Below the pieces are notes generated by a model, which worked only from the letters and a program-made list of their open reading frames with translations, did not search any database and had not been told where the DNA came from. DNA of 64,000 nt, from contig JBBTRQ010000019.1 in assembly GCA_038065075.1 (NCBI GenBank), positions 9,456 through 73,455 of the forward strand, read 5' to 3'. The position numbers were made by a program, and so were the translations under genes. Origin of the DNA: Patescibacteria group bacterium (GTDB lineage Bacteria; Patescibacteriota; Patescibacteriia; UBA9934; GWF2-40-263). Each line of letters begins with the position of its first letter. Positions within the stretch are counted from its first letter, which is position 1. Positions 25,648 through 42,421 of the stretch are shown piece by piece.

Positions 25648-26052
25648 TTAACACCTCTGTTCATCGAGACATTTGTTCACGAGCGCGTCGGCTTCCTTGT
25701 TCTTCTCGCGACGCACGTGCGTGAACGACACGTGGTCAAATTTGTGCAATAAATTCTTCACTTCCAAAAACCGCTTGGCGATTTCCGGATCCTTCACGCG
25801 ATACTCGCCCTTGAGCTGTTTGGTTGCGAGCTCAGAATCCATAAAGAGCGAGACCTGCGTTGCCCCAAGCTTGGCGGCGCGCTCGAGTCCGATGATGATG
25901 GCGGTGTACTCGGCCTGGTTATTCGTCGTCTTGCCAAGATACTTCATCACCTCCGCGATCAGCTCCCCATCTGGCGACTTAATCACCGCTCCGCTCGCGG
26001 CCGGCCCCGGATTCCCTCTCGCCCCACCGTCTGTGTAAATGTGTACGTGCAT
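25648..26052 (-). CDS. rnhA: Ribonuclease HI
   Basis: 'HIYTDGGARGNPGPAASGAV...NQAEYTAII...DSELATKQL...' matches the RNase H fold catalytic residues. Start set at MHVHIY. Confidence 0.8.
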   Translation of the reverse strand: MHVHIYTDGGARGNPGPAASGAVIKSPDGELIAEVMKYLGKTTNNQAEYTAIIIGLERAAKLGATQVSLFMDSELATKQLKGEYRVKDPEIAKRFLEVKNLLHKFDHVSFTHVRREKNKEADALVNKCLDEQRC

Positions 26053-26065
26053 AAATTGCCCCCCG

Positions 26066-26144: not shown

Positions 26145-27944
26145 CTAGTGAGTTTGTAAATCTACAATACGAATTTGGAGCTGTCGGTTGCCGTTCCATT
26201 CGTTCACCTGAATCTCGAAGGCGACGTCGATCTGTGCGCCGTACGTCAACTTCGTGATCCAGCTCCCAAATCCAAATCCAATCGCCTCCACCAGTTTACC
26301 AGTTGCCGAAGCTAAACGCAGTTTAAGATGTCCACCGTCACGACCGACCGTTGAAAACGCGGCCACGCTCACGTTGCGCGAGACGAACACCGGAACAGGA
26401 TTCCCCGTTCCAAACGGATGAAAGGCCTGAAGCTCGTCGAACAGCTCCCAGGTAATTTTCTCGAGCGGAATCTCTGCGTCGATCGTGAGTCGCGGTTCGA
26501 GATCCTCTGGCTTCAGTTCTCTCGCGGCAAATTCTTTCATCATCTCCATGGCCTTGTGGAATCGCTCCTCGCCGCTCACGGAAAAACCGCACGCCTGCGG
26601 ATGGCCGCCGAACTTGTCCAAAAACTCGCTGGCATAGTGAAGGGCCTTGGTTACATCAAACCCCTCGATACTCCGACCTGAACCGACAAACTTCTCCCCG
26701 TCTTGTCCCACAACCAATACCGGTCGGTGATACTCGTTCATCAATTTTCCGGCGACGAGACCGACGAGCCCCGCGCCCCAACCTTCCTGATACGCAACGA
26801 TCAACGATTCGCCGATGGCCTCGCCAATCTGCTTCTTTGCCTGCTCAAACATGAGCTGTGAGGCCTTCTGCCGCTCGACGTTGAGTTCATGAAGTCTCAT
26901 CGCCAGCGCTGTCGCGCGCACGTCATCCTCTTCGACGAGCAGATCAAGCGCTTCGCTGGCATGTGTCATGCGACCAGCGGCGTTCAAACGTGGACCAATC
27001 TGGAACCCGATAGAAACCGTGTCGAGCTCCCCAAGTTTTGAACCGGACACGTCGAGGAGTTTCTGAATACCTTTGCGGCGTGTCTTGTTGAGGACGAGGA
27101 GTCCATACTTCTCAAGCACGCGATTCTCACCACGCAGGGGCATCACGTCCGTCACGGTCGCGATCGCCACCAGATCGAGGAGCCATTTCTCATGACCATC
27201 AGGAAATGCCCCTCCACGATTTCGAGCCTCGACAATAAGAGCGCTCGCCAGCTTGAACGCCACGCCCGTTCCGCACAGATGCTTGTTGGGAAACGTTTCG
27301 CCTGGCACCAACGGGTGGATGAGAATGGCGGAAGTCGGGAGCTGTGCGGGCATGGTGTGATGATCACAAACGATCGTGTCGATCCCCAGCGTGGCGCCGC
27401 GGTCGATGGCCGGCTTGTTCGAAATCCCGCAGTCGACCGTGATGACCAGCTCTGTGTTCTCGTGTTCGTTCAAATGCTCGATCGTCTCAATAGACATCCC
27501 ATATCCTTCTTTCTCGCGGTGCGGGATGTACGTCGTGATCTTGGTTTCGTCAAAAGAAGAGATTGCTTCGGTCCCGCCACGCTTCGCTCGCGGCTTCGGC
27601 GTACTCCCTCGCAATGACACAGAACGTAACGCCCGGCAAATCTCCCGCAGGGTCGTGACGAGCACGGCCGTCCCGCACGTGCCGTCCGCATCGTAGTCGC
27701 CGTGAATCGTGATGACCTCAGCCCGCTCGAGAGCTTGGAACACACGCCCCACGGCCCGTTTCATGTGTAAAAAAAGCTCGGGACCAAACGTGTCCCGGCT
27801 CCAATCTGGTCCCAAAAAAATATCCATCTCTCCTTGCGTCTTGAGACCCCGATTCCAGAGCAACTGCAAAATAACGTCGTCGAGTTCAGGAAACTGACGT
27901 TGCACGTCTTGTGAGACTGGTTCCTGAACCATCCAACGTTTCAT
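26145..27944 (-). CDS. recJ: Single-stranded-DNA-specific exonuclease RecJ
   Basis: DHH motif (ITIHGDYDADGTCGTAV) and DHHA1 domain. An extra ~25-aa segment (STPKPRAKRGGTEAISS) resembles a repeat-family-D insertion. Confidence 0.85.
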   Translation of the reverse strand: MKRWMVQEPVSQDVQRQFPELDDVILQLLWNRGLKTQGEMDIFLGPDWSRDTFGPELFLHMKRAVGRVFQALERAEVITIHGDYDADGTCGTAVLVTTLREICRALRSVSLRGSTPKPRAKRGGTEAISSFDETKITTYIPHREKEGYGMSIETIEHLNEHENTELVITVDCGISNKPAIDRGATLGIDTIVCDHHTMPAQLPTSAILIHPLVPGETFPNKHLCGTGVAFKLASALIVEARNRGGAFPDGHEKWLLDLVAIATVTDVMPLRGENRVLEKYGLLVLNKTRRKGIQKLLDVSGSKLGELDTVSIGFQIGPRLNAAGRMTHASEALDLLVEEDDVRATALAMRLHELNVERQKASQLMFEQAKKQIGEAIGESLIVAYQEGWGAGLVGLVAGKLMNEYHRPVLVVGQDGEKFVGSGRSIEGFDVTKALHYASEFLDKFGGHPQACGFSVSGEERFHKAMEMMKEFAARELKPEDLEPRLTIDAEIPLEKITWELFDELQAFHPFGTGNPVPVFVSRNVSVAAFSTVGRDGGHLKLRLASATGKLVEAIGFGFGSWITKLTYGAQIDVAFEIQVNEWNGNRQLQIRIVDLQTH

Positions 27945-29812
27945 GAATCTCGTTTCAGTACTTTTAGGTAGGCGTCTGTTGGAATGCTGACACGCCCTTT
28001 TCCAAGCGCGGCCATCTTTGCCTTTCCTTTTTTCTGTTTCTCGAGAAGCTTGCGCTTACGCGTCACGTCGCCGCCATAGAGGCCGGCTGTCACGTCTTTA
28101 CGCATCGCGGAAATCCGTTCCGAGGCGACGACTTTACCTCCCACGCTCGCTTGCAGTTTGATAACGAAATTCTGACGCGGGATCGTGTCCTTCAACACCG
28201 CGGTGATACGCCGCCCGGCTCGATCTGCTTCGTCGCGGTAGACCAGGGTGGAAAAAGCGTCCACCGGTTCTTCCGCAACCAAGATGTCCATCTTCACCAC
28301 GTCGGCCGGTCGGTAATCAATCACCTCGTAGTTGAGCGACGCGTAGCCAGCCGTGATGCTTTTGAGTTTATCGTAAAAATCCACGATGATCATGGCAAGC
28401 GGAATCTGATAGTGGAGAATGGCACGATCGCCAGCGAGATACTCGGTTGTCTCATACAACCCCCGTCGTTCCTGCATGAGCTGCATAATGGCGCCGATGT
28501 AGGAACTGGGACTGACAATATCGACCTTCACCCATGGTTCACGAATGACCTCGATGTGCGAGGGGTCGGGAAGCTCAAGCGGACTCTTGATCACGATAGT
28601 CTCACCGCGGCGCAGAACCACCTCATACGCCACAGACGGCACTGTCACGACCAGACTCATGTTGAACTCACGCTCAAGTCGCTCTTTGAGAATCTCCAGG
28701 TGCAACATGCCCAGCAGTCCACAACGGAATCCAAAACCCAGCGCCGGCGAGTGCTCGGACTCATAGACCAACGCGGAGTCGTTTAATTTGAGACGCTCAA
28801 TCGCTTCGCGCAAACGATGGAAATCATCACCCTCCTGCGGAAAGACACCGGCGAACACCATCGGTTTGACTTCCTTATAGCCAGGAAGCGCAGGCGGGAG
28901 ATGATCAGCAGGAACGGTAATGGTGTCACCAACTCGACAACCGCTGAGATCCTTGAGTCCGGTGACGATGTACCCAATTTGTCCAGCCTCTAACGTATCA
29001 GCAGATTTGAGAGCCCCCGGCGTGATCGCCCCGGTCTCAAGCACCTGAATGTCGGCGCCGGTGGCGATCATCTTTACCTTTTTGCCTTTGTGCAGGGCGC
29101 CGTCGACGACACGGATATATGCCATCACTCCTCGGTAGTCGTCGTAGAACGAATCAAAAATGAGGGCACGCGTAGGTGCGGCAGGGTCGCCAGACGGAGG
29201 TGGAAACCGTTGGACGATCGCATCAAGCAATTCCATCACCCCCTGTCCCGTCTTTCCACTCACCGCCAAAATCTCCTCGGGCTTACACCCGATAAGGGAC
29301 ACGATCTCAGCCGTGCGCGCTGGGATATCCGCCGCCGGCAGATCAATCTTGTTGAGGACGGGAATGATCTCGAGGTTCTCCTCAAGTGCGAGATACAAGT
29401 TTCCAATCGTCTGCGCCTGCACGCCCTGTGTGGCGTCGACGAGCAAGATCGCTCCCTCCACGGCCGCAAGAGACCGACTCACTTCGTAATTGAAGTCAAC
29501 GTGTCCCGGTGTGTCGATGAGGTTCAGGATGTATGTATCGGGGGGTACTTGCCGATCCAGATGGGATCCCTCGACTCGCTTCGCTCGCTCGGGATGACCC
29601 CCGCCAGAATACTTATAACCCATTCTGGCAGGGGTCAGCTTAATCGTGATCCCGCGCTCGCGTTCGATGTCCATGGAGTCGAGGATTTGCGCCTTCATGT
29701 TGCGTTTGTCTACCGCGCCGGTCAATTCCAAAAGCCGATCCGCGAGGGTCGACTTTCCATGATCGATGTGGGCGATGATACAGAAGTTTCGAATGTGCGC
29801 TTGATCGGCCAT
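27941..29812 (-). CDS. lepA: Elongation factor 4 (LepA)
   Basis: G-domain motifs AHIDHGKST and DTPGHVDF plus a LepA-specific C-terminus. Carries an in-frame repeat-family-D insertion (SGGGHPERAKRVEGSHLDRQVPP) between G1 and G3. Confidence 0.9.
   Translation of the reverse strand: MADQAHIRNFCIIAHIDHGKSTLADRLLELTGAVDKRNMKAQILDSMDIERERGITIKLTPARMGYKYSGGGHPERAKRVEGSHLDRQVPPDTYILNLIDTPGHVDFNYEVSRSLAAVEGAILLVDATQGVQAQTIGNLYLALEENLEIIPVLNKIDLPAADIPARTAEIVSLIGCKPEEILAVSGKTGQGVMELLDAIVQRFPPPSGDPAAPTRALIFDSFYDDYRGVMAYIRVVDGALHKGKKVKMIATGADIQVLETGAITPGALKSADTLEAGQIGYIVTGLKDLSGCRVGDTITVPADHLPPALPGYKEVKPMVFAGVFPQEGDDFHRLREAIERLKLNDSALVYESEHSPALGFGFRCGLLGMLHLEILKERLEREFNMSLVVTVPSVAYEVVLRRGETIVIKSPLELPDPSHIEVIREPWVKVDIVSPSSYIGAIMQLMQERRGLYETTEYLAGDRAILHYQIPLAMIIVDFYDKLKSITAGYASLNYEVIDYRPADVVKMDILVAEEPVDAFSTLVYRDEADRAGRRITAVLKDTIPRQNFVIKLQASVGGKVVASERISAMRKDVTAGLYGGDVTRKRKLLEKQKKGKAKMAALGKGRVSIPTDAYLKVLKRDS
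29564..29600. repeat. Repeat family D copy, inside lepA and in frame
   Basis: GGGATCCCTCGACTCGCTTCGCTCGCTCGGGATGACC. Other copies at 18733-18770, 44121-44180, 44251-44298, 60914-60962, with diverged copies in dus (40447-40490), rimK-like (41645-41682) and recJ. Confidence 0.65.
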
Positions 29813-29870
29813 AATCGCGACTATCCTACCTAAAATAGAAAAGACGCGCTAGTTGCGCGTCTGCGTGGCG

Positions 29871-30170
29871 CTAGGCGAACAGGAGGATCCCGCCGATCAT
29901 GCCGACCACGAAGCTGCAGGCGCTAACGCCGACCCAGACCGTGTGCCATGAGTGCAACCACGGCCATGGATCGGGCGCGGGCTGCAGGGCAGCGAGCGCC
30001 TGAACGGTTACGGTGTCATCGAGCTCGAGCTCGAGAACCTGTTCCTCGACGGGCGGCCGCCAAAACGGCGCCCCGACCGTGTCGTCCGGTCGCATGAGCG
30101 GCTGTGGCTTCTGCGGGACGATCACGTCGACAATCGTGGTCTCTTCTCCCCTTCGCGTCGATGCGTGCAT
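29871..30170 (-). CDS. Hypothetical small protein with a C-terminal TM segment
   Basis: GC-rich ORF at the left edge of the WD40/AAA island. Weak support. Confidence 0.2.
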   Translation of the reverse strand: MHASTRRGEETTIVDVIVPQKPQPLMRPDDTVGAPFWRPPVEEQVLELELDDTVTVQALAALQPAPDPWPWLHSWHTVWVGVSACSFVVGMIGGILLFA

Positions 30171-30262
30171 TGATCCTCCTCAAGATGAATAGCACGGCGA
30201 AAGGATACAGAACCATCGCCAACCAGTCAATCCCAGTTAAGCAACAGGTCTAATATGTTCCC

Positions 30263-30292
30263 TCAAGAAAAGAACCATCAGATGATGGTTCT
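30263..30292 (-). terminator. Intrinsic terminator of WD40 paralog 1
   Basis: AGAACCATC-agat-GATGGTTCT followed by TTTTCTTG on the minus strand. Confidence 0.5.
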
Positions 30293-30320
30293 TTGACGAA
30301 TGTTCCGGACGGCGTTTGTC

Positions 30321-31352
30321 CTACCAGATCGCCGCGGCCAGTGCCTCGGGGGTGAGGATGGTGTTGCGTCCCAAGTCCGGACAACCGAAGTCCAAGAGAC
30401 AGGGGGCATAGCAGTCGGACGATCTTGCCGGACACTGTGTGCGGTTCTTGGAAACCAGCAGTCCCTTGCCATCATCCACGGGGATGACCGCGTCGACCAC
30501 TTCCCAGAAGTCCGTAAGCGCAAGCTCCAGCTGACCATCCGGCCAGCTCATGGCGTGCAGGCAGCCGCCTCCGCGGGTGCCATCCACGACCAAGGTGTCC
30601 CACTGCCCCACGAACAGGGTGTTTCCTGTGAAGATAAGTGCGCGAATCTCTCCGCGTGAGTGAGCGGTGAGCTCCGGCCTGTGGCGTGCCGCTCCAGTCC
30701 TCACGTCCACCAGGTGGATCTGTCCGCCTTGTGTCCCACACAGAAGCTCTCCCTTAGGCGTGAAGGTGAGAGCCCAGATGCTGGAGTCCAGCCGGAGGCT
30801 ATGGAGAGTATGGAATCTGCCATCTCCCTGCCTTGAGAGGATCTTCAGGTATCCATCCCACATCCCCACCGCCAGGATGGAACCGTCTGAAGAGAATGCC
30901 AAGCGCAAGATCTGACCCTCAAACCCCTCGAGGCACCGGAAGGTATCGCTCCCGGGATATCTCAAGAAGAGCACATTCTCGTCACCCCCTGTGGCAAGGA
31001 TGCCGTCCTGGGACAGGGCGAGGTGGTTGACAGACCAACTGGAGCTCACAATCGGTTCACCTCTTTGGCACAGATACTCCACATCCCACTCACGCAGGGT
31101 GTGGTCGTGGCTGCACGAGTAGAGGGTGCGGCCATCAGACGAGAGCGCGAGGCCGGCTACACTGTCGGTATGCCCTTCAAGGACACTACAAACTTCCCCG
31201 GTCTCCACACTCCACAGATGGATACGAGGATCCGCGTTGAATCCCCCGCCCGCCAGTGTCTTCTCGTCCTGGGACAGAGCCAGGCACCAGATCCAGCTAT
31301 TGTGCCCCCTGAACAATCGCCGAGTGGTCGGCTCGGAAACGATGCGGGTCAT
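30321..31352 (-). CDS. WD40 beta-propeller protein (7 repeats), paralog 1, with a conserved Cys-containing C-terminal tail
   Basis: Repeated GH...WD units (GHTDSVAGLALSSDGRTLYSCSHDHTLREWDV etc.). Start set at MTRIVSEPTTRRLF, preceded by AAAGGAGACCACC. C-terminal tail is YAPCLLDFGCPDLGRNTILTPEALAAAIW. Confidence 0.7.
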   Translation of the reverse strand: MTRIVSEPTTRRLFRGHNSWIWCLALSQDEKTLAGGGFNADPRIHLWSVETGEVCSVLEGHTDSVAGLALSSDGRTLYSCSHDHTLREWDVEYLCQRGEPIVSSSWSVNHLALSQDGILATGGDENVLFLRYPGSDTFRCLEGFEGQILRLAFSSDGSILAVGMWDGYLKILSRQGDGRFHTLHSLRLDSSIWALTFTPKGELLCGTQGGQIHLVDVRTGAARHRPELTAHSRGEIRALIFTGNTLFVGQWDTLVVDGTRGGGCLHAMSWPDGQLELALTDFWEVVDAVIPVDDGKGLLVSKNRTQCPARSSDCYAPCLLDFGCPDLGRNTILTPEALAAAIW

Positions 31353-31478
31353 GGTGGTCTCCTTTGAATGAACGTCTTGACCATGAAAGGTCGATGGCTC
31401 GCAGGGGCGAGCGTCAACCTCTCGTGGAAAAGGCCTAACGAGTTGCGTGTCGCTAGGCATGTGGTGGTAGTGCCCGTT
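31353..31478 (-). repeat. Conserved terminator/leader module, copy 1
   Basis: On the minus strand: terminator hairpin GCCTAGCGA..TCGTTAGGCC + TTTTCC, then hairpin GCTCGCCCCTGCGAGC, then AAAGGAGACCACC-ATG. Near-identical copies at 32511-32645, 35310-35457, 36490-36590. Confidence 0.7.
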
Positions 31479-32510
31479 CTACCACCTCGCCGCGGCTCGT
31501 GCCTCGGGAGTGAGGATGGTGTGGCGTCCCAGATCCGGACAACCGAAGTCCAAGAGACAGGGGGCGTAGCGGTCGGGCGACTCGGCCGGACTTTGCGTGC
31601 GGTTCTTGGAGACCAGCAGACTCTGGCCACCATTCACGGGGATGACCGCGTTAACCCATCCCCAGAAGTCCGTAAGTGCAAGCTCCAGCGCACCATCCGG
31701 CCAGCTCACGGCGTGCAGGCGACCGCTTCCGCGGGTGCCATCAGCGACCGAGGTGTCACACTGCCCCACGAGCAGGGAGTTTCGCGTGAACGCGAGCGCG
31801 TGGATCTCTCCGCGTGTGTGAACGGTGAGCTCCGGCCTGTGGCGTGACACTCCCGTCCTCACGTCCACCAGATGGATCTGTCCGCCCTCTGTCCCACACA
31901 GAAGCTCTCCCTCCGGCGTGAAGGTGAGAGCCCAGATGATCGAGTCCAGCTGGAGGCTGTGGAGAGTCTGGAATCTGCAATCTTCCTGCCTTGAGAGGAT
32001 CTTCAGGTGTCCATCCCACATCCCCACCGCCAGGATGGAACCGTCTGAAGAGAGCGCCAAGCGCAAGATCTGACCCTCAAACCTCTCGATACACCGGAAG
32101 GTATGGCTCCCGGGGTTTCTCAAGAAGAGCGTCTTCTCATCACCCCCTGTGGCAAGAGTGCCGTCCTGGGACAGGGCGAGGTGGTTGAAAGGCTGCTTCG
32201 AGCGCAAAGTCGGTTCACCTCTTTGACGCAGATGCTCCATGTCCCACTCGCGCAGAGTGTTGTCGTGGCTGCACGAGTAGAGGGTCTTGTCATCAGGCGA
32301 GAACGCGAGGCCGGTGACACTGTCTGTGTGCCCTTCAAGGACACCACGAACTTCTCCGGTCTCCACGCTCCATAGGTGGATCCGAGGATCTGCTCCTGAA
32401 CCCCCGCCCGCCAGTGTCTTCCCGTCTTGGGACAGAGCAAGGCGCCAGATCCAGCCGAGGTGTCCATTGAACAATCGCCGAGTGGTTGGCTCGGAGATGG
32501 TACGGGTCAT
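31479..32510 (-). CDS. WD40 beta-propeller protein, paralog 2
   Basis: Same architecture and C-terminal tail as paralog 1 (MTRTISEPTTRRLFNGH...). Confidence 0.7.
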   Translation of the reverse strand: MTRTISEPTTRRLFNGHLGWIWRLALSQDGKTLAGGGSGADPRIHLWSVETGEVRGVLEGHTDSVTGLAFSPDDKTLYSCSHDNTLREWDMEHLRQRGEPTLRSKQPFNHLALSQDGTLATGGDEKTLFLRNPGSHTFRCIERFEGQILRLALSSDGSILAVGMWDGHLKILSRQEDCRFQTLHSLQLDSIIWALTFTPEGELLCGTEGGQIHLVDVRTGVSRHRPELTVHTRGEIHALAFTRNSLLVGQCDTSVADGTRGSGRLHAVSWPDGALELALTDFWGWVNAVIPVNGGQSLLVSKNRTQSPAESPDRYAPCLLDFGCPDLGRHTILTPEARAAARW

Positions 32511-32645
32511 GATGGTCTCCTTTGAATGAACGTCTTGACCATGAAAGGTCGATGACTCGCCAGGGGCGAGCGTCAACCTCTCGTGGAAAAGGCCTAGCGA
32601 GAGCGTGTCGCTAGGCGTGCGGCTTGTGAGCCACGTGGTTGGTGA
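32511..32645 (-). repeat. Conserved terminator/leader module, copy 2
   Basis: See copy 1. Confidence 0.7.
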
Positions 32646-35309
32646 CTAATTCGTCACCGATGGCTTAACCGGCGGGATGACCTGCATACGGATGTCAGAC
32701 TCCTCTCCGTGCTGCTTGAGCACCTCCAGCGCCCACTCCACCTCGTCCCGCGCGTTGGCGGGCAGAAGCGCTCTGGAGCGCGCGTTGGCTACGGCCAACA
32801 GGGTCATGCGGGCGATTTGCGTTTGCTGTGCCTGCGGCATGTAATCGCCGATGGCCCAGAGCAGATCATCACGATTCACGCCAGGCTCCCCGTGCGTGTC
32901 GGCGTGCCGGACGATCACCTCGATGTCCGCGCCGGAGAGGCGCTTGGTCTTGTCGGCGAACTCCGTGAAGTCCGTGATGTCCGTGGTGAACCCGCCGCGC
33001 CGAATCATCACGCGGAACAAGGCTTCACGGGTCGTGGCATCGGGCATGAGCACCGGGATGACTTCGTCGCTTCGACCGGCACGCAGCATGGCCGCGTCGA
33101 TGAGATCCGGTCGGTTGCTGGCCGTCATGTAGAACACGCGGCCTCGGATGGTCGGATCGGCGAGGAAGGTCATCCACGCCTGACGCGTCCGGTTGGACAC
33201 ACCCGAGTCGCCGCTGAATCCATCGCGTCCGCCGTCGTTCTGATCGATCTCGTCCTGGAATACCACGCACGGCGCCATCAACCTTACGGCCTCCAGCTGG
33301 TCGTGCACGTTGCGCTCCGATGAGCCAACCCACATCTGTTGAGTGTGGCGAGGGATCAGCAGCAAGAGACCGGAGGCGTGCGCCAACGCCGTCGCCAGCG
33401 CACTCTTGCCGGTACCGGGCGGTCCCAGCAGTGCACACCCCATGGGCACTCGCGAGAGGTCGCCCGTGCGCATGCGCTCGCAGACGTCCAGGAGAAACGT
33501 CTTGACGCCGTCGAGTCCGGCGATGCCGTCAAACCCGTAGGGTGGGTCGATCACCTCAAACAGATGCCCGAAGCGCTCGTTGAGGATGACCAGCCTGTGT
33601 GCGACCACGTCCTTGTGGGACAGCGGCTGGTTGCCGGCCTGCGCGCGACGAAGCAGACGGCGCAGATCGCGGTAGCCCATGTTGCCGGTCAGACGAGCCA
33701 GCTCGACAACCCCCATGGTGGGCGTGTCGAACAACGATTCGTCGTCACGGGTTGCCGTGAGCCGTCGATGCTGCTCGCGCAAGTCGGTTAGTGTCTCGCT
33801 GGAGAGGTTCGGAAGACGAGCCTTGCTGTCTCGCAGTGTCTGCGCCAACTGCTGCGCGATCCGTGTGTGGTCCTCTTGCAGCTCCTGCAACCGACTCACA
33901 GCCGCTGTCGTCAGCCGATCGAGCTCGCTTTGCGCCTCTCGGATCGACGCCGGCTCGCTCGAGCACAGCGCCTCCAAGTTCCGTTGCAGCTCCTCCAGAC
34001 ACTCTGTTGCCTGCTTTCGAGCAAACGGCTTCACCGTTAGGCAAGCGACGTTGTCGGCATTGGCCACGCAGATGTCGGCGTCGTTTGCCTTGAAGCGCAT
34101 CACCAGCAATCCGCCCTCAAAGAAGAATTGGGCGGGGATGCTGGAGTTACGCGAGTCGGTGACCGGCTTGTTCGGGTTCGCCCCGCTGGCGAACTGCACT
34201 CCGCTACGTCTCGTCGCGCTCTTGAGCACAGTGAAGCGCTGTGCCCCACCACGCGAGTCCTGGACACTGACCATATCGCCGGGCGCCAAATTGGCCCAGC
34301 GAGCCTCGTCAAGAGACGCGTCATCGGTCAGGAGAGGATCGCTCCGCAGCTGTGCGCCAAGGGCATCGATCTGCGCTTGGAGATTCGCCAACTGCCCGGC
34401 ATTATCCGCGTTGAGGGACTGCCGCAGAGCCGTAAGCGAGGATCGGCACCGCTTCACGGCCGCCAGATGCCCCTTGTACTCACCGTCTTGCTTGAGGGAC
34501 TTGCGTAGGGCGCTGTGCCGTTCGTCTGCCGTCCGAGCCGCAACGATGTCGTCATTCGCTCGCGCTTGCAGTACTTGGATCTCCTCGGCGATCTGCATCT
34601 CCAGCTCTTGCTGGCGCTGCAGGCCACTGTCCGTCCTACACACCCGGCGCAAGTAAGCCTCACGCTCCGCCTGAAGGGGGGGATCCACCTTGATCAAGCA
34701 GATGGGCGAGCTGCTGTCGCGCAGCATCTGGGGCAACAAGCCGGAAGATCTGGCGCTCATGAGCACCAAATGGCCGACGATCCCAAAGGCATCGTCTTCC
34801 GCCATTCGCCGGATGAGCAACGGCGTACGCGACGACATGGCGCCGGCAGGGGAACTGTCGTCCAGACAGTAGGTGTCGACATTGGGCAGAATCACCGTGA
34901 AGCGAACCGAATCGCCGACGGCGTGCCGCAGCACGTTCATGATCTGCGACAAAGCCCCGGTGGGATCCGTCGTCTGCTCGACCCTCGACGCCACCTGCGC
35001 TCGCGCGCGGGCGATGGGATCGTCAGCTTCACCGGCAGACTGCCGGTTCTTCTTAAGCAGCTCCCCGAACGCCTCATGATCTTCGTCTCTGGGGAAGCTC
35101 AAGCCCAGAGCCGGATCAAACACGACGAAACGACGATCGGGCTCCTGCCTGACCAACGCGTCGAGTACCAGCCGGTGCCAAGGCAACAGCGCCATGGATG
35201 ACGCATCGGTCGTATTGGGGAAGCCGTCTGCGACGTTCCCGTCAAACAGGAAGCAGAAATGGCACCTGGCGCGCTCCTGCTCGAAGGTTCTCATCCAAGA
35301 TGGAGTCAT
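32646..35309 (-). CDS. Large (≈887 aa) protein: N-terminal unknown region + extensive coiled coils + C-terminal classical AAA ATPase domain
   Basis: Walker A GPPGTGKS, Walker B VVFQDEID, second region of homology RPDLIDAAMLRAGRSDEVIPV. Heptad-rich Q/L/A segments lie upstream. Start set at MTPSWMRTFEQ behind GGAGAAGAG. Confidence 0.7.
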   Translation of the reverse strand: MTPSWMRTFEQERARCHFCFLFDGNVADGFPNTTDASSMALLPWHRLVLDALVRQEPDRRFVVFDPALGLSFPRDEDHEAFGELLKKNRQSAGEADDPIARARAQVASRVEQTTDPTGALSQIMNVLRHAVGDSVRFTVILPNVDTYCLDDSSPAGAMSSRTPLLIRRMAEDDAFGIVGHLVLMSARSSGLLPQMLRDSSSPICLIKVDPPLQAEREAYLRRVCRTDSGLQRQQELEMQIAEEIQVLQARANDDIVAARTADERHSALRKSLKQDGEYKGHLAAVKRCRSSLTALRQSLNADNAGQLANLQAQIDALGAQLRSDPLLTDDASLDEARWANLAPGDMVSVQDSRGGAQRFTVLKSATRRSGVQFASGANPNKPVTDSRNSSIPAQFFFEGGLLVMRFKANDADICVANADNVACLTVKPFARKQATECLEELQRNLEALCSSEPASIREAQSELDRLTTAAVSRLQELQEDHTRIAQQLAQTLRDSKARLPNLSSETLTDLREQHRRLTATRDDESLFDTPTMGVVELARLTGNMGYRDLRRLLRRAQAGNQPLSHKDVVAHRLVILNERFGHLFEVIDPPYGFDGIAGLDGVKTFLLDVCERMRTGDLSRVPMGCALLGPPGTGKSALATALAHASGLLLLIPRHTQQMWVGSSERNVHDQLEAVRLMAPCVVFQDEIDQNDGGRDGFSGDSGVSNRTRQAWMTFLADPTIRGRVFYMTASNRPDLIDAAMLRAGRSDEVIPVLMPDATTREALFRVMIRRGGFTTDITDFTEFADKTKRLSGADIEVIVRHADTHGEPGVNRDDLLWAIGDYMPQAQQTQIARMTLLAVANARSRALLPANARDEVEWALEVLKQHGEESDIRMQVIPPVKPSVTN

Positions 35310-35457
35310 GACTCTTCTCCTCGTGTGGTGTGGGTTGGAAATTGAATGAACGTCTTGACCATGAGGGGTCGATGGCTCGCAGGGGCGAGCGTCAACCTCT
35401 CGTGGAAAAGGCCTAGCGAGCAGCGTGTCGCTAGGCATGCGGTGGGTAGTGCCCGTT
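35310..35457 (-). repeat. Conserved terminator/leader module, copy 3
   Basis: See copy 1. Confidence 0.65.
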
Positions 35458-36489
35458 CTACCACACCGCCGCGGCCAGTGCCTCAGGGGTGAGGATGGTG
35501 TTGCGCCCCAGACCCGGATAGCCAAAGTCCAAGAGACAGGGGGCGTAGCGGTCGGACGATCTTGCCGGACACTCCATGCGGTTCTTGGAAACCAGCAGTC
35601 CCTTGCCACCATTCACAGGGATGATCACGTCGACCCCTCCCCAGAAGTCCGTAGGGGCAAGCTCCAGCTGACCATCCGGCCAGCTCATGGCGTGCAGGCG
35701 GCCAAGTCCGCGGGTTCCATCCGTAATCGAAGTATCCTGCTGCCCCACAAGCAGAGCGTTTCGCGTGAACGCAAGCGCGCAGATCTCTCCACGTGTGCGA
35801 ACGGTGAGCTCTGGCCTGTGGCGTGACTCTCCCGTCCTCACGTCCACCAGGTGAATCTGCCCGCCTCCTGTCCCGCATAGGAGCTCTCCATCCGGCGTGA
35901 AGGTGAGCACCCAGATGCTTGAATCCAGCCGGAAGCGGTGGAGAGTCTGGAAGCTGCCATCTTCTTGCCTTGAGAGGACTCGCAGATGGCCGTAAGCCCT
36001 CCCCACCGCCAGGGTGGAACCGTCTGCAGAGAATGCCAGGCACCGGATCCAATTCTCGAACCCCTCGATGCGCTGGACGGTTTTGCTCCCGGGACGTCTC
36101 AAGAAGACAACGCCATCGCCACCTCCTGTGGCGAGTGTGCCGTCCTGGGACAGGGCGAGGTGACTGAGAGTACCCCTCGAACTCACAATCGGTTCACCTC
36201 TTTGGCGCAGATGCTTCACATCCCACTCACGCAGGGTGTGGTCGTAGCTGCACGAGTAGAGGGTGCGGCCATCATGCGAGAACGCGAGGCCGGTGACACT
36301 GTCTGTGTGCCCTTCAAGGACACCACGAACTTCCCCGGTCTCCACGCTCCATAGGTGGATACGAGGATCAAATCCTGAACCCCCGCCTGCCAGTGTCTTC
36401 CCGTCTGGGGACAGAGCAAGGCACCAGATCCAGCTGTTGTGTCCCCTGAACAATCGCCGAGTGGTTGGCTCGGAAACGGTACGGGTCAT
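35458..36489 (-). CDS. WD40 beta-propeller protein, paralog 3
   Basis: MTRTVSEPTTRRLFRGHNSWIWCLALSPDGKTLAGGG... with the same C-terminal tail. Confidence 0.7.
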   Translation of the reverse strand: MTRTVSEPTTRRLFRGHNSWIWCLALSPDGKTLAGGGSGFDPRIHLWSVETGEVRGVLEGHTDSVTGLAFSHDGRTLYSCSYDHTLREWDVKHLRQRGEPIVSSRGTLSHLALSQDGTLATGGGDGVVFLRRPGSKTVQRIEGFENWIRCLAFSADGSTLAVGRAYGHLRVLSRQEDGSFQTLHRFRLDSSIWVLTFTPDGELLCGTGGGQIHLVDVRTGESRHRPELTVRTRGEICALAFTRNALLVGQQDTSITDGTRGLGRLHAMSWPDGQLELAPTDFWGGVDVIIPVNGGKGLLVSKNRMECPARSSDRYAPCLLDFGYPGLGRNTILTPEALAAAVW

Positions 36490-36590
36490 GGTGGTCTCCT
36501 TTGAATGAACGTCTTGACCATGAAAGGTCAACGGCTCACCAGGGGCGAGCGTCGACCTCTCGTGGAAAAGGCCTAGCGAGTTGCGTGTCG
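36490..36590 (-). repeat. Conserved terminator/leader module, copy 4
   Basis: See copy 1. Confidence 0.65.
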
Positions 36591-37193
36591 CTAGGCATGC
36601 GAACCAAGACCCAACAGTCGTAGAACACTGGCGATTCGTCCGTGATCCGTCACGCCGTGCGAGACCACTTGACCGCCATCGATCTCCAGCGCGATGACGC
36701 TGTCCAAATCCTCTGAACGGTATCGCCCTGTCAACAGATGCACTCTCTGGTTACTACTTCCTCGCAGGGGAAGGTTGTCCACGGCCAAGAGTTGCACGAA
36801 CCGACCGTCGATAAGCACGTCCAGTTCTCGCAGAAGTTCGCGCGCCCCATCCGGCGCATGGGCACCGCGCAAGAACTTCCGTGTGTAGCCTGACCAGCAC
36901 AGCACGGACAGACCCTGCTCCTTGGCCGCGTGCGCGATCTGCGCAAGCGCCCGAGCTTGCTCAAAGGGCTCGCCTCCGGAGAAGCTCACGCCTTCGATCC
37001 CGAATCGTTCTTGCGCTTGCGCGATGCATGTGATCAACGCGTCGACAGCGACGAGGTTCCCTCCATCGCCCCAGAGCTCCGGCGTGGTGCAACCATGGCA
37101 GCCGATGGTGCAGCCCTTGACCCAAAGACACAGGCGCTGACCCGGACCCATGGCAGGCGTGCACTCGACCACGCGCCCGACGCGCAGGATCAT
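36591..37193 (-). CDS. Small radical-SAM / 4Fe-4S single-cluster protein of the NrdG / QueE activase type
   Basis: 'GPGQRLCLWVKGCTIGCHGCTTPELW' gives C-x3-C-x2-C in the NrdG/QueE-like context. About 200 aa. Confidence 0.55.
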   Translation of the reverse strand: MILRVGRVVECTPAMGPGQRLCLWVKGCTIGCHGCTTPELWGDGGNLVAVDALITCIAQAQERFGIEGVSFSGGEPFEQARALAQIAHAAKEQGLSVLCWSGYTRKFLRGAHAPDGARELLRELDVLIDGRFVQLLAVDNLPLRGSSNQRVHLLTGRYRSEDLDSVIALEIDGGQVVSHGVTDHGRIASVLRLLGLGSHA

Positions 37194-37402
37194 CCTCCAC
37201 CTCTGACCTTCCCACCGGATGGGACGGGAATGGGCGGAGCGCTTGCGTCGGGCACGTTCATCTCGTCAACACGTCCGCCCAACAACGCCAGGATGGCGCG
37301 CAGGCGTCGAGCCTCCTCCTGGCAGACGCCCGGAAGCGCTTCGACTTGGATGTCCACCGTGCCGTCGCCCTTCACGACGACGATGATCTCTCTGGCGCTC
37401 AT
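37190..37402 (-). CDS. Small protein (70 aa), translationally coupled to the radical-SAM gene
   Basis: 4-nt overlaps on both sides. Ends in a Pro/Gly-rich tail (PPIPVPSGGKVRGGG). Confidence 0.3.
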   Translation of the reverse strand: MSAREIIVVVKGDGTVDIQVEALPGVCQEEARRLRAILALLGGRVDEMNVPDASAPPIPVPSGGKVRGGG

Positions 37403-37965
37403 ACGTCCACCTTTCGGCCGACGATGACCAGGGCGCCGTCGGCTCCGCGCGTTTCCACGATGTCATCGACACAGAGAATCTGCATGGCCGCACGCATCTG
37501 CTGCTCATGAAAGTGACGCCGCAGACAGTCCTTCCACTGTGCAAGCTCGGCAGGGTGGCACTGCTGCGTTCCCGTGTTCCAGAACTGAAAGAAGGTGCCG
37601 TCCTCTCGGATCCCAACCCCCAACTGGAGGAATGTCCCGTTATTGAGCACGCCAAGAACTTCGCCTTGGTCCGGATCGCCGCTCTTGGAGCCGTAGGTGC
37701 TGGCGTTGTCGTAGCTCTTGGCGCATGTGCAACCCATCTCTTGCGCGGCTGCCGCAAGCGCTTGGCGCATGGCGTGGGCACGCACCTCCTGCCAATTGAT
37801 GGCGGCCAGATCCGCATCCTGCGCGCCGATCTGACCTAGTGCGCCCGTGACGGATCCGGCATCGGCGATCTCTCCGATGTGGAGCTTGTGATAGTGCAGA
37901 GACACCTGTCCTCCTGTGGGGAAGGTTATTCCATGGACAAAAGAGACGATTTTTCCCTTTGCCAA
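37399..37965 (-). CDS. Hypothetical protein (188 aa), first gene of the radical-SAM operon
   Basis: No recognisable motif. Overlapping stops and starts indicate an operon. Confidence 0.35.
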   Translation of the reverse strand: MAKGKIVSFVHGITFPTGGQVSLHYHKLHIGEIADAGSVTGALGQIGAQDADLAAINWQEVRAHAMRQALAAAAQEMGCTCAKSYDNASTYGSKSGDPDQGEVLGVLNNGTFLQLGVGIREDGTFFQFWNTGTQQCHPAELAQWKDCLRRHFHEQQMRAAMQILCVDDIVETRGADGALVIVGRKVDV

Positions 37966-38069
37966 GGAGAAACGTTTTTATATCAAAAACGCGAATGTGT
38001 CAATGAAAAATCCCGGACATCTAATCCGAGATATTCTGCTAGAAAGGTCTCTACAATATGATCACCTAC

Positions 38070-39437
38070 CTACCATTCATGACTACTCTGATATTCCGGC
38101 ACGATCACCTCCGTTTTGAGCTTGTGTCGAAGGTGTGTGGCGAAGACCTCCTTGGCCTCCGGATCGCCGTGCACGAGAAAAATCTTTTTTGGAATCTTGC
38201 CGTCTTCGGGCTTGAGCCAGCGCGTGAGCTTGTTCATGTCCGCGTGCGCCGAGAAGGCGCCGATCGCGCTTACTTGCGCGTGCACCTCCACGTCCTCGCC
38301 AAAAATCCGCACCTTCTTCGCCCCTTCGTACAACTTTCGCCCCGTCGTCCCCTGCGCCTGGTAGCCGATGATGAGCAGACGGTTGTTCTTGCCTGGGAGA
38401 TAGCGGATCAGGTGATGCATGATGCGTCCACCCGACATCATCCCGGAACCCGCGACGATAATTTTGGGTGGCACGGCATCGTTGATTGATTTGGACTCTT
38501 CCACAGAGAGAGTCTCGCGCAAATTCGGAAAGCTGAAGAAGTCCTTGTCGGGATCCTTCAGAATGGATTCATCGAATTTCAAAAACTGTTTGAAGTGTCG
38601 GTAGAGCGCCGTAGCCTTAATCGCCATCGGACTATCCAGATAAATCGGGAGCTTCGTGTGGAGGTCTTCTAAAAGAAGTTTGTTGATTTCGTACAGGAGC
38701 TCTTGCGTACGCTCGATCGAAAACGCTGGGATCATCAAGACCCCGCGAAGTTTGATGATATCTTGAATCGCCTCCTTCAACTTGGCTCCGCGCGTGTCCA
38801 TGCCCTCGTGTTCGCGGTGTCCGTAGGTCGATTCGCAGATGACGATGTCCGCATGGGAGATCGGTTCGGTGTCGGGAAGAATCGGCACGTCGTCGTTACC
38901 AATGTCCCCAGAGAAGACCACACGCTCTCCTTGTGCATCCACCGAGATGTAACTTGAGCCCAGCACATGACCCGCTTCATGAAAGACAACGGTCACCCCA
39001 GGCCACAGGTCGATATGCTCATGATAGGTCACGCTTTTGACTTGCGCGAACGCGCGCTCCAGATCTTCGAGTTCGTACAAGACCGAGCTCCCACATTTTT
39101 CTGCTTCTTCCTTCATGATGTGGTGTGCGTCCTCAAGCACCAATTTCGCCAAACCCACGCACGGCTCCACCATGTAGATCGGTCCCGTGAATCCTTCTTT
39201 CACGAGCTTAGGCAGACGCCCGGTGTGGTCGGCATGCGGATGGGAAACAAAAACGGCTTCAATCGCGGAAGCATCGAACTTAAACGCATCCTGGTTCTTG
39301 TTGCCGCACATGTGTTCCCCCTGGAACATGCCGCAATCAAACAGGATCGCGTGCGACTTTTTTTCCGCATCGAGAAACTCTAACCGATGGCATGAGCCCG
39401 TCACCTCCCTCGCGGCCCCATGAAATGAAATGTTCAT
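38070..39437 (-). CDS. Metallo-beta-lactamase fold / beta-CASP ribonuclease (RNase J/CPSF-like)
   Basis: HxHxDH motif (VSHPHADHTG) and beta-CASP region with conserved D/H. 455 aa. Confidence 0.65.
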   Translation of the reverse strand: MNISFHGAAREVTGSCHRLEFLDAEKKSHAILFDCGMFQGEHMCGNKNQDAFKFDASAIEAVFVSHPHADHTGRLPKLVKEGFTGPIYMVEPCVGLAKLVLEDAHHIMKEEAEKCGSSVLYELEDLERAFAQVKSVTYHEHIDLWPGVTVVFHEAGHVLGSSYISVDAQGERVVFSGDIGNDDVPILPDTEPISHADIVICESTYGHREHEGMDTRGAKLKEAIQDIIKLRGVLMIPAFSIERTQELLYEINKLLLEDLHTKLPIYLDSPMAIKATALYRHFKQFLKFDESILKDPDKDFFSFPNLRETLSVEESKSINDAVPPKIIVAGSGMMSGGRIMHHLIRYLPGKNNRLLIIGYQAQGTTGRKLYEGAKKVRIFGEDVEVHAQVSAIGAFSAHADMNKLTRWLKPEDGKIPKKIFLVHGDPEAKEVFATHLRHKLKTEVIVPEYQSSHEW

Positions 39438-41470: not shown

Positions 41471-42421
41471 ATGACCATCGGCATCCTCATTTTCTCCGAG
41501 CCACGCGACGAAGTGTACACAGGCGTTGACCGTCTTGTTTCAGCTGGACAAGCGGCAGGCCACACCGTCGTCAAACTCTACGAGCCGCACCTCTCTTTCC
41601 TGTGTCATCCCGTCTTCGACTCCGAGGTCGCTCAGACTCGAGGAGAGCGAGCAGAGCGAGCCGAGGGATCTCCTCACGTCGCGACAATCCTTCACGAGGG
41701 CCAACCGCTTCCAAAACTCGATATCATCATCTCGCGACCGAACTTCGTCGAGGAACCGAGCCTGCGCACCTATGCCGTCCAGATGTTGGAGCGGGCTGGC
41801 TACCGAGTTATCAACGGCCGCCCTGGGTACACCTGGGCAAAAAATAAGCTCACGCAACACGTGTTATTTGCACAGCATGACCTCCCCTGTCCGCGTTGGG
41901 GAATCGCCCGTAGACCGGAAGATACCGTCGCGATCGCGAAGACCATCGGATTCCCGGTGATCGTAAAAGTGGCGTTTGGCACGCACGGCAAGGGCGTGTT
42001 CCTGGCCAAGGACGAGGAGTCTCTCTGGCCGATTGTGGACTATCTGGGTATCCGTGATGGGAACCCTATGATCGTTGAAGAGTTTATCGCGGAGGCTCGG
42101 TCGAGTGACCTGCGAGCATTCGTCATTGGCGGTGAGGTCGTCGGGGCGATGCAGAGAACAGCCGCGGTCGGAGACACGCGAGCAAACACCTCCAGCGGCG
42201 GAACAGGATCGCCGATTGAACTCACACAAGCGGAACAAGCTCTGGCGATCCGCGCCGCCAAGGTGTTTGACCTTGAAATCGCTGGCGTGGATCTCATTCG
42301 TTCAAAACAGGGTCCTCTCCTGCTCGAAGTAAATGGAAACCCCGGCTTCCGAGAACTCGAAAAGGTCACGAGCCTCGACATCGCTCACAAGATCATTGAC
42401 TACGCGGTCGGTCAGTCGTAA
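41471..42421 (+). CDS. ATP-grasp enzyme, RimK-like (alpha-L-glutamate ligase family)
   Basis: ATP-grasp motifs (FPVIVKVAFGTHGKGVFL ... LEVNGNPGF). Carries a diverged repeat-family-D insertion (GERAERAEGS). Preceded by the conserved leader. Confidence 0.65.
   Translation: MTIGILIFSEPRDEVYTGVDRLVSAGQAAGHTVVKLYEPHLSFLCHPVFDSEVAQTRGERAERAEGSPHVATILHEGQPLPKLDIIISRPNFVEEPSLRTYAVQMLERAGYRVINGRPGYTWAKNKLTQHVLFAQHDLPCPRWGIARRPEDTVAIAKTIGFPVIVKVAFGTHGKGVFLAKDEESLWPIVDYLGIRDGNPMIVEEFIAEARSSDLRAFVIGGEVVGAMQRTAAVGDTRANTSSGGTGSPIELTQAEQALAIRAAKVFDLEIAGVDLIRSKQGPLLLEVNGNPGFRELEKVTSLDIAHKIIDYAVGQS

Follow-up and report, generated by a model that had tools for sequence, protein, structure and literature searches.

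Radical S-adenosylmethionine (radical SAM) activases of the PflA/NrdG type, AAA+ unfoldases of the Cdc48/p97 type and the ternary conflict systems, which combine repeat proteins (beta-propeller or tetratricopeptide repeat) with an AAA+ NTPase and in one subtype carry a radical SAM effector (Kaur, Burroughs, Iyer, Aravind, eLife 2020, PMC7159879), are among the closest described relatives of an eight-gene island that we analyzed in a Patescibacteria group bacterium. The text of the paper on the ternary systems makes no mention of DUF1257, DUF2997 or NrdG. The island lies in a 64,000-nucleotide stretch of contig JBBTRQ010000019.1 (assembly GCA_038065075.1, positions 9,456 to 73,455; hereafter the window) and encodes a radical SAM enzyme (rSAM), an 887-aa AAA+ ATPase, three WD40 paralogs, two small proteins that we call X and Y, and a 99-aa protein (orf99). 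An original prediction, made from the sequence of the window, had not recognized this exact combination as a described system; in agreement, the module as a system is absent from Pfam, NCBIfam release 20 (2026) and PADLOC (2023), no NCBIfam model names a cassette-specific protein, and no description was found in the searchable open literature, non-indexed papers being outside its reach. Here we report that the island is a lineage variant, the form found in the candidate phyla radiation (CPR), of a much wider module of rSAM, AAA, DUF1257-like and DUF2997 proteins.

The likeness of the island to the PflA/NrdG activases extends to the GPGxR, CX3CX2C and GGEP motifs, to a gene that sits beside its presumed target and to a candidate target that is a short exposed peptide. 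Unlike glycyl-radical pairs, however, the island has no pyruvate formate-lyase (PFL)-like barrel and no R-V-x-G-[YF] loop in a catalytic domain; the tails of canonical module members have Asp at the place of the radical Gly, and the candidate in the CPR form is a terminal [KR]-V-x-G-G on Y. A further difference from the activases is that the module rSAM is always coupled to an AAA+ ATPase. With Cdc48/p97, including actinobacterial Cpa and archaeal VAT, the window AAA shares the fold of both domains, the classical clade, an aromatic-hydrophobic-Gly pore loop and the arginines of the second region of homology (SRH), and accessory proteins with short docking peptides, predicted for the island, would be another likeness. 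It differs from them in a D1 domain without Walker A, the absence of a double-psi-barrel N domain, an inserted stalk of about 300 aa with a beta domain, a TIGR01243 score of 109.6 bits against a cut-off of about 802-803, and the lack of a ubiquitin or proteasome context. The original prediction had likened the protein instead to Mpa and PAN, a comparison that does not hold: the best folds are p97, Cdc48, NVL and Rix7, the scores lie far below the cut-offs (TIGR03689, 31 versus 505; PAN, 101 versus 500), the coiled coil is internal with the D1-like domain first, the C-terminus has no HbYX or GQYL end, and the operon has no proteasome genes.

Tethering of SspB to ClpX offers a parallel in design, with a variable substrate-binding body, a short conserved C-terminal peptide and several adaptors per hub, but the island has no protease partner, its adaptors are tandem-amplified repeats, and docking is a prediction. 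Repeat proteins and an AAA+ NTPase are also what the island has in common with the ternary conflict systems, which the original prediction had called to mind; nevertheless, none of their defining components is present, since Pfam detected no vWA, MoxR, VMAP, STAND or effector-associated domain and the AAA belongs to the classical clade. The three families Ycf46 (AAA), Ycf35 (DUF1257) and DUF2997 are the same as those of the canonical module, and DUF2997 and Ycf35 are neighbours in cyanobacteria; there, however, they cluster with ferredoxin Fed7, and no radical SAM enzyme or tailed client is listed for the one cluster compared. IetA gives a match at the domain level only (53 bits versus 510), with no IetS-type protease in the island, and radical SAM clusters for ribosomally synthesized and post-translationally modified peptides (RiPPs) differ in having SPASM/twitch and RiPP recognition element (RRE) domains, a precursor and a protease or exporter, none of which was detected. 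A preprint on a pair of DUF4130 and a DNA-repair radical SAM protein proved unrelated. Because the module departs from the NrdG/NrdD, glycyl-radical, Mpa/PAN, Cdc48, IetAS, RiPP and ternary systems in these respects, and because no description of it was found, we rate it as lying outside the known kinds of system.

Results

A wider module beyond the CPR

A genome scan with the rSAM alignment yielded 80 loci; 67 loci from outside the CPR, together with about 13 from within it, served to define the module. The hosts include Melainabacteria/Gastranaerophilales, Bacillaceae, Paenibacillus, Clostridia, Actinobacteria, Planctomycetes, Myxococcota, cyanobacteria and methanogens. Neighbouring open reading frames (ORFs) were clustered and representatives were scanned against Pfam, which gave a canonical cassette composed of at least one membrane ComEA-type HHH_3 (helix-hairpin-helix, HhH) protein, rSAM, an AAA protein of about 540 aa, a DUF1257-like protein and a DUF2997 protein. 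For example, the Pfam matches in locus L018 are DUF2997 (PF11211, 3e-13), DUF1257 (PF06868, weak at 3.5e-3) and HHH_3. The AAA, DUF1257-like and DUF2997 proteins and a tailed client were all present together in 37 of the 67 non-CPR loci, and a tailed ORF lay directly upstream of the rSAM gene in 41 of the 67.

The tails of the canonical members are sharply defined. HhH/ComEA-type clients ended in [GE]-R-x-[VIL]-D-[LFIYW]-COOH in 60 of 67 cases and canonical AAAs in S-R-G-G-R-[AT]-[LIV]-D-[FV]-COOH in 49 of 57, while the pattern R-x-phi-D-phi-COOH occurred in only 1 of 789 other ORFs. Plasmids of B. cereus/thuringiensis, Arthrobacter/Paenarthrobacter, Rhodococcus and cyanobacteria carry the cassette, where its annotation is only generic.

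The CPR form is connected to the canonical one in two ways: Y aligned with canonical DUF2997 proteins (hhalign probability 90%, E 1.6e-6), and residues 555-862 of the window AAA aligned with a canonical 545-aa AAA at 29% identity (7e-21), family-specific segments included. In addition, the window rSAM was 36-56% identical to module members across phyla. The window cassette has no R-x-phi-D-phi-COOH ending, its clients bearing a different conserved extension and its AAA ending in ...SVTN, and it is thus a variant rather than a canonical member of the module.

The radical SAM enzyme

The module is defined by its rSAM, a 200-aa protein that belongs to the glycyl-radical-enzyme activase type. The original prediction had called it NrdG/QueE-like, with which its Fer4_12/NrdG-like match agrees (Table 1). 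The N-terminal GPGxR, the CX3CX2C at residue 28 and the GGEP at residue 73 were invariant in 38 homologues. Its best solved relative is the PFL-activating enzyme (4.5e-17), it shares about 40% identity with T4-type NrdG in the core region, and homologues are named 'anaerobic ribonucleoside-triphosphate reductase activating protein' in the source databases. Nonetheless, it scored 91.4 bits against the TIGR02491 NrdG cut-off of 126.1 and fell below every NCBIfam cut-off. The search returned 1,583 homologues, the nearest of which (44-57% identity) came from Patescibacteria/Uhrbacteria. No NrdD or glycyl-radical domain was found in the eight operon proteins or in eight other large window ORFs that were scanned, and Pfam and NCBIfam detected no SPASM/twitch or RRE domain, short precursor, transporter/exporter or protease in the operon.

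Homologous rSAM genes were also observed in other company. On the plasmids pNDM1_010055 of Acinetobacter (L105, 1-7573) and pW18-2-a of Moellerella (L106, 1-7576), the last gene of a different set of five encodes an rSAM of about 190 aa; the other members are a giant AAA-domain protein, a PIN-domain protein of 720-800 aa, a 370-aa unknown and an AAA_2 (Clp-type) ATPase of 617-620 aa, and the Moellerella set is close to ardA. This appears to be a separate rSAM/ATPase system, possibly of defence type. Another variant (L109, 356-10636) comprises a 540-aa AAA ending in ...QGGRTRDRV, a Upf1-like helicase (1,192 aa), unknowns of 562 and 687 aa, proteins of 73 and 160 aa and an rSAM, and near it are a Ser/Thr kinase and a SWI2/SNF2 helicase.

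The AAA+ ATPase

A classical AAA domain at the C-terminal end of the 887-aa protein had been predicted originally and was recovered by Pfam (Table 1). The check proposed for the N-terminal region was carried out with AlphaFold2 (AF2) and Foldseek, and it revealed a D1-like domain, a stalk and a beta domain in place of the N-terminal coiled coil that had been expected. In the AF2 model (predicted local distance difference test, pLDDT, 81.6), a degenerate D1-like alpha/beta domain without a P-loop (residues 1-223) is followed by a stalk of two long helices running up (227-323) and helices running back (429-522), a beta domain at the stalk tip (346-427) and an active classical AAA module (584-866), so that the coiled coil becomes a stalk between the D1-like domain and the AAA module. 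The live module carries Walker A GPPGTGKS at 629, Walker B at 682, the pore loop WVG at 660 and RAGRSD at 743 (SRH arginines/arginine fingers), and D1 has no Walker A.

In Foldseek the highest-ranked structures were p97, Cdc48, NVL and Rix7, with alignments that in some cases extended to about 870 columns, and the N-domain profile gave a weak match to Rix7/NVL D1 (2.4e-4). On the basis of this ranking and profile match we classify the modelled protein as Cdc48/p97-like rather than Mpa/PAN-like, with a predicted dead D1, an inserted stalk and an active D2 in which the pore loop is retained. A word-indexed search with the whole protein produced generic AAA matches and no close full-length relatives; an exhaustive search with the first 620 residues produced 24 full-length representative clusters of 850-980 aa. 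As in the AAA members of the module, the N-domain is non-catalytic and a family-specific GDSG(V/T)S segment is present, and the N-domain profiles of the CPR and canonical AAAs matched weakly (E 0.038) but in register, with intermediate families found. The C-terminus of the window AAA reads ...PVKPSVTN; Asn is likewise the last residue of several shorter AAA relatives (P0154-P0163), whose tails are otherwise not conserved.

The small core proteins X and Y

The first gene of the operon had been predicted to encode 188 aa. The gene itself stands, but the product is more likely a 168-aa protein, X, that starts most likely at the ATG listed in Table 1, because its homologues begin with MS(R)HY. Such homologues, 160-203 aa long, are found at this position in 12 CPR loci and have in common an invariant MS start, W38 and G85/G96. 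X matched nothing in Pfam, NCBIfam or PADLOC, even at E values up to 10 or when all homologues were used. Its comparison with canonical DUF1257-like proteins by hhalign covered only the C-terminal 52 columns at a non-significant E of 0.044, and the structural model (pLDDT 81.5) is an alpha+beta sandwich for which a fold search of the PDB gave no informative neighbour. X is possibly a divergent DUF1257 protein.

Y has a DUF2997-like N-domain, in which one Cys is invariant, joined by a Pro-rich linker to a basic tail that is rich in Gly and ends in ...GGKVRGGG; the alignment reported above identifies it as a divergent DUF2997 protein. Pfam does not recognize the CPR Y proteins, nor do they match NCBIfam or PADLOC. 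Among the 12 loci compared, [KR]-V-x-G is present in the Y tails of five (the window, L009, L099, L102 and L108), the tails of 10 end in Gly or within two residues of it, and four end in a GGG run. The glycyl-radical fingerprint is R-[IVT]-[CSA]-G-Y (PROSITE PS00850), to which the Y tail bears a partial likeness that we keep as a lead only. The canonical R-x-phi-D-phi was likewise considered as a glycyl-radical loop with Asp for Gly; only the Arg and the aromatic position fit the fingerprint, and this too is no more than a lead.

Cassettes in other Patescibacteria

The X-Y-rSAM-AAA core recurs in at least 12 other loci of Patescibacteria/Uhrbacteria. The gene order with its 4-nt overlaps is kept in L003, L005, L099-L102, L107, L108 and L110, and L092 and L096/97 carry the same genes. 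In the CPR loci X has 160-203 aa, Y 69-75, rSAM about 200 and the AAA 700-924, the last being split once (306+577).

Eight other CPR loci carry one to eight tandem paralogous repeat proteins next to or around the AAA gene, most of them WD40 proteins: L099 has six WD40 copies, L100 four, L102 at least five and L091 eight, and there are two client copies in L096/97, one in L005 and one in L093 (a 4-kb contig). The clients of L092 are seven copies of a non-WD40 protein of about 230 aa with a W.SHPQGVVI...LLNG repeat. Five core loci (L003, L101, L107, L108 and L110) have no WD40 proteins or clients, and L005 and L108 share flanking genes and site, WD40 being present only in L005. One Uhrbacteria genome (GCA_026395055.1) contains two cassettes, L005 and L100, each with its own rSAM, and in different genomes the cassette occupies different chromosomal sites. 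Therefore, the invariant unit is X-Y-rSAM-AAA, and the WD40 proteins are optional and replaceable by another repeat protein. The WD40/AAA pairing itself passes the co-occurrence test of the original prediction, for this neighbourhood recurs in other CPR genomes (L099, L100, L102, L091 and L005), and an absence of conserved co-occurrence is thereby refuted; the same recurrence in Uhrbacteria corrects the expectation that WD40 proteins are out of place in a CPR gene set.

In the WD40-less cassette of L003 (11474-15938), the AAA gene is followed by five genes encoding a 509-aa unknown, a 161-aa ThiF/E1-like fragment (recognized by eye), a 94-aa SAMP2-like ubiquitin-like (Ubl) protein ending in ...QGG (Pfam 4e-5), a 500-aa protein with a HEMAHG zincin motif and a 142-aa unknown. 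These may form a ubiquitin-like conjugation module beside the Cdc48-like ATPase.

WD40 paralogs and client tails

As predicted originally, the three WD40 proteins are of near-equal length, at 343 aa each, and the tail YAPCLLDFG[CY]P.LGR.TILTPEA is present in all three. Their genes are 1,032 nt each, about 85% identical in DNA and 75-78% identical in protein. The ratio of nonsynonymous to synonymous divergence (dN/dS) among them was 0.45-0.49, with patches near 1. Synonymous divergence is mosaic over window positions 30321-36531 (0.09 between paralogs 2 and 3 at codons 1-80, 0.04 between 1 and 2 at codons 141-180 and about 0.1 between 1 and 3 at codons 261-320), which points to gene conversion among the paralogs.

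Across the CPR loci, client bodies have a median identity of 20-76% within a locus, and the last 28 residues keep 40-89%. In 26 CPR ORFs the C-terminus is preceded, at a distance of 16-21 residues, by the motif phi-phi-DFGxPN[LF]G, which had no match in 46,669 residues of neighbouring ORFs. The original prediction took the common tail as a dock for a common partner. The extension is indeed the most conserved part of the clients, in keeping with such a partner, but LLDFG appears to be partly structural and not purely a docking element, because LLDF falls at the x-W-D-x strand of the seventh (last) WD-like blade, where blades before it have IHLWSV, LREWDV and IHLVDV. The idea that the phi-phi-DF core of the CPR clients is homologous to the canonical ...phi-phi-DF-COOH tail was set aside as evidence, since LLDF is the WD strand of the last blade.

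The extreme C-termini of the clients are specific to the locus and independent of fold, ending in ...EALAAAIW in the window and in ...EEALLYI, ...ELPV, ...DASFG or ...DEAFV elsewhere. The last of these is common to the WD40 clients of L099 (...LDEAFV) and the non-WD40 clients of L092 (...RFDEAFV). In L005 and L100, both of GCA_026395055.1, the AAAs are 33% identical and the clients of both end in ...[ED]LPV, indicating that the extreme C-terminal peptide tracks the genome or client lineage rather than the AAA.

Structured leader elements

The three WD40 genes and the AAA gene, all downstream of rSAM, each have a leader element of about 100 nt in front of them, and the four copies occur only in the island within the window (Table 1). 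A 32-nt core is identical in three copies and at most one base off, where none is expected by chance. The predicted fold has two hairpins and the element is better conserved than the adjacent coding DNA; its layout is a GC hairpin, a C/U-rich tract, a second hairpin, GAAAG and then TTC.TT.CA before the ribosome-binding site. Two-hairpin intergenic elements of other sequence and the same layout precede client and AAA genes in L091, L099, L100 and L102. Rfam gave nothing credible in the island. The leaders could be attenuators, processing sites or regulator-binding sites. An interpretation as integron attC-like sites was rejected, because no integrase is present and the cassettes are paralogous to one another. 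Mechanically called ORFs run upstream through the leaders (32646-35612, 988 aa; 30321-31460, 379 aa; 31479-32576, 365 aa; 35458-36531, 357 aa), and the repeated 'protein' ...PFPREVDARPCEPST.HGQDVHS is a translated leader and noncoding; gene callers and homologues favour the shorter starts.

Boundaries, composition and assembly of the island

The island was shown to be a single horizontally acquired operon. Eight consecutive minus-strand genes span positions 29,871-37,905 of the window, between an RNase J-like gene and lepA. The ORF list places every gene where the original prediction had put it and the flanking domains confirm the neighbours, although the count of seven genes, correct as far as it goes, misses an eighth ORF of 99 aa. 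GC content is 0.616 in the island and 0.547 in the remaining window; at third codon positions (GC3) it is 0.69-0.82, compared with 0.63-0.69 for the genes on either side, and in tetranucleotide distance the island exceeds every other 8-kb segment twofold. All three profiles support the predicted compositional shift. AT-rich gaps had been described at both edges, which is true of the upstream gap (GC 0.41) but not of the downstream one (0.52).

Comparison of the window with an independent ENA assembly (NODE_560, 33.7 kb) showed colinearity through both junctions: the two agree over 19.4 kb with 99.88% identity, and all 24 differences fall outside the island. An assembly chimera, against which the original prediction had advised a check, is therefore unlikely. 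These differences are clustered: 15 lie in a 143-nt stretch (window 25918-26060) of an RNase H-like gene and five in a 71-nt stretch (window 42336-42406) of a RimK-like gene.

Orf99 resembles the rest of the island in composition (GC 0.657, GC3 0.82) and is also called as a gene in the ENA assembly. It had no match in Pfam, NCBIfam or PADLOC and no counterpart was seen in the other loci, and whether it belongs to the system is uncertain. Elsewhere in the window, two further GC-rich patches (0.61-0.66) at 6504-8603 and 53366-54919 (minus strand) contain ORFs of 699 and 517 aa without a Pfam match, and an 852-aa protein (46006-48564, minus strand) has VirD4/TrwB-type coupling-protein domains, a type IV secretion or DNA-transfer component in a small genome.

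Table 1. Features of the island and its borders, in window coordinates.
Feature	Position	Strand	Remarks
lepA, flanking gene	27,941-29,812		
Terminator-like hairpin with T-run	29,842-29,862	-	closes the operon
orf99, 99 aa	29,871-30,170	-	C-terminal hydrophobic/transmembrane helix; last ORF before terminator
WD40 paralog 1, 343 aa	30,321-31,352	-	PF00400 1.5e-27
Leader copy 4, upstream of WD40 paralog 1	31,353-31,478	-	RNA fold -45.9 kcal/mol, z -5.3
WD40 paralog 2, 343 aa	31,479-32,510	-	PF00400 6.2e-30
Leader copy 3, upstream of WD40 paralog 2	32,511-32,645	-	
AAA+ ATPase, 887 aa	32,646-35,309	-	PF00004 4.2e-22; classical AAA domain at residues 620-805
Leader copy 2, upstream of AAA gene	35,310-35,457	-	94% identical to copy before WD40 paralog 1
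WD40 paralog 3, 343 aa	35,458-36,489	-	PF00400 2.6e-30
Leader copy 1, upstream of WD40 paralog 3	36,490-36,590	-	
rSAM, 200 aa	36,591-37,193	-	activase type (NrdG/PflA-like); PF13353 (Fer4_12) 1.7e-31
Y, 70 aa	37,190-37,402	-	overlaps X and rSAM genes by 4 nt each
X, 168 aa	37,399-37,905	-	first operon gene; ATG at 37,905 (188 aa from TTG at 37,965)
Terminator-like hairpin after RNase J-like gene	38,010-38,032	-	upstream boundary of island, inside AT-rich gap
RNase J-like flanking gene	38,070-39,437		metallo-beta-lactamase/Beta-Casp/RMMBL domains

Discussion

The picture that emerges has a constant and a variable part. The conserved core consists of the rSAM, the Cdc48/p97-like AAA+ ATPase, the DUF2997-type Y and possibly a DUF1257-type X, with the catalytic motifs intact. 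Its variable tailed partners are WD40 or other repeat proteins in the CPR and membrane ComEA-type HhH proteins elsewhere, and their C-terminal ends are conserved. What these parts do together is probably best explained by an activase-like rSAM and a Cdc48-like AAA that form a core with exchangeable tailed partners, into which the WD40 proteins plug by way of their tails, an explanation we prefer without regarding it as secure. On this explanation the WD40 paralogs would be exchangeable targeting or client subunits. Their variable propellers would bind different ligands, and the conserved extension at the C-terminus would hold each paralog to the shared core in the way that the C-terminal peptide of SspB anchors this adaptor to ClpX. 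The AAA ring would thread or remodel a polypeptide, and the rSAM, like its activase relatives, would take a hydrogen atom from a protein substrate. The likeliest substrates may be the tails encoded directly upstream, namely the [KR]-V-x-G-G of Y in the CPR and R-x-phi-D-phi-COOH elsewhere.

Several observations weigh against a tail-coupled core with exchangeable partners. Conservation of the LLDFG part of the tail may be structural, at least in part, and the CPR tails need not be homologous to the canonical R-x-phi-D-phi tails. The CPR AAAs lack the canonical tail, 13 of the 24 long-form AAAs ending in Asn, and the Y tails are not uniform, with L096, L100 and L101 lacking Gly-Gly. The assignment of X to DUF1257 is not significant and Pfam is blind to both X and Y. 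A dN/dS below 1 is no proof of diversifying selection, and the cassette contains no recognizable effector or toxin domain. Finally, the module is syntenic beside aroA and lptF/G-type genes in many Gastranaerophilales, L101 and L107 share one chromosomal site as do L005 and L108, and Ycf46, Ycf35 and DUF2997 are cyanobacterial/plastid housekeeping genes, all of which argue for housekeeping remodelling rather than defence.

It is possible, although we think it unlikely, that the island is an anti-phage or conflict system, in which the WD40 proteins would be diversifying sensors of invaders, the AAA a switch, and the rSAM or radical damage the effector. Tandem, copy-variable and fast-diverging repeat arrays with gene conversion speak for such a system, as do the compositionally foreign island, variable insertion sites and the plasmid carriage of the canonical cassette; the homologous rSAM that proteobacterial plasmids carry close to ardA in the company of PIN, AAA_2 and giant AAA proteins, and the weak similarity of the AAA domain to IetA, point the same way. 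Nevertheless, the cassette has no nuclease, TIR, protease, pore-forming or other recognizable effector, its specific proteins have no match in PADLOC, the core persists without WD40 proteins in five CPR loci, synteny is kept in Gastranaerophilales and within Uhrbacteria sublineages, the overall dN/dS is below 1, and the module is neither a ternary vWA-MoxR nor a STAND system.

We are similarly doubtful that the module is a housekeeping machine for remodelling or quality control akin to Ycf46/Ycf35, in which the tailed proteins would be substrates or membrane/DNA anchors and the rSAM would add a needed modification. The membership of its AAA, DUF1257 and DUF2997 proteins in the Ycf46-like, Ycf35 and DUF2997 families of cyanobacteria and plastids, the fixed position by aroA, lptF/G-type and ATP synthase genes in many Melainabacteria, the intact pore loop and the absence of a toxin are consistent with such a role, whereas the patchy distribution outside Melainabacteria and Uhrbacteria, the plasmid carriage, the foreign composition of the island and client copy numbers that range from 0 to 8 between close relatives are not. 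Overall, we give a conflict role and a protein-remodelling role roughly equal weight; the distribution leans toward an accessory or conflict function.

Tagging in the manner of Pup or ubiquitin is a considerably less probable account. Here Y would be a modifier with a Gly-Gly tail, the AAA would read tagged proteins, and the rSAM would replace a ligase or activate the tail. Y does have about 70 aa and a disordered basic tail that mostly ends at or near Gly, its gene is translationally coupled to that of the rSAM, its [KR]-V-x-G resembles the glycyl-radical fingerprint, the AAA is p97-like, and in L003 a SAMP2-like Ubl ending in GG lies beside the cassette. However, the core has no E1, PafA, ATP-grasp ligase or deconjugating peptidase, the tail is not conserved in L096, L100 and L101, the canonical DUF2997 tails are acidic and without Gly-Gly, and we know of no precedent for an exposed glycyl radical on a flexible tail. 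Lastly, an ordinary NrdG or RiPP-type maturase beside unrelated WD40/AAA genes, or a chimera, is highly improbable, for although the top NCBIfam match, the database names and the identity to T4 NrdG favour it, it is contradicted by the gene order with AAA, X and Y that is kept across phyla, and it is at odds with the sub-cut-off score (91 bits versus 126), the lack of an NrdD or glycyl-radical domain in the ORFs scanned, the two rSAM copies of one Uhrbacteria genome, each in its own cassette, the lack of SPASM, RRE, transporter and protease, and the colinear independent assembly over both junctions.

If the exchangeable-partner core is correct, the reach of glycyl-radical activases would extend beyond metabolic enzymes: a large sister group would act, in concert with an AAA+ unfoldase, on the C-terminal tails of proteins that are not enzymes, and bacterial protein targeting would gain a new kind of post-translational chemistry. 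A more far-reaching and rather speculative proposal, to which we lend limited credence, is that the module is a hitherto unrecognized protein-targeting pathway, with a range from the CPR to Firmicutes, Actinobacteria, Melainabacteria, archaea and plasmids, in which radical chemistry by the rSAM on short C-terminal tails, either R-x-phi-D-phi-COOH or a terminal [KR]-V-x-G-G borne by a DUF2997 carrier, is coupled to a Cdc48-like unfoldase with exchangeable repeat or DNA-binding targeting subunits, a radical counterpart of degron or Ubl tagging. Should the module already be described in a non-indexed paper, the novelty would lie in the CPR variant found in the island. The sharp tail motifs and the plasmid versions in Bacillus and Arthrobacter make these proposals testable in cultivable hosts. 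The exchangeable-partner core, if borne out, would provide a first functional handle on Ycf46, Ycf35 (DUF1257) and DUF2997, which are orphan genes of cyanobacteria and plastids, and would explain why reduced CPR genomes carry up to about 10 kb of WD40 arrays.

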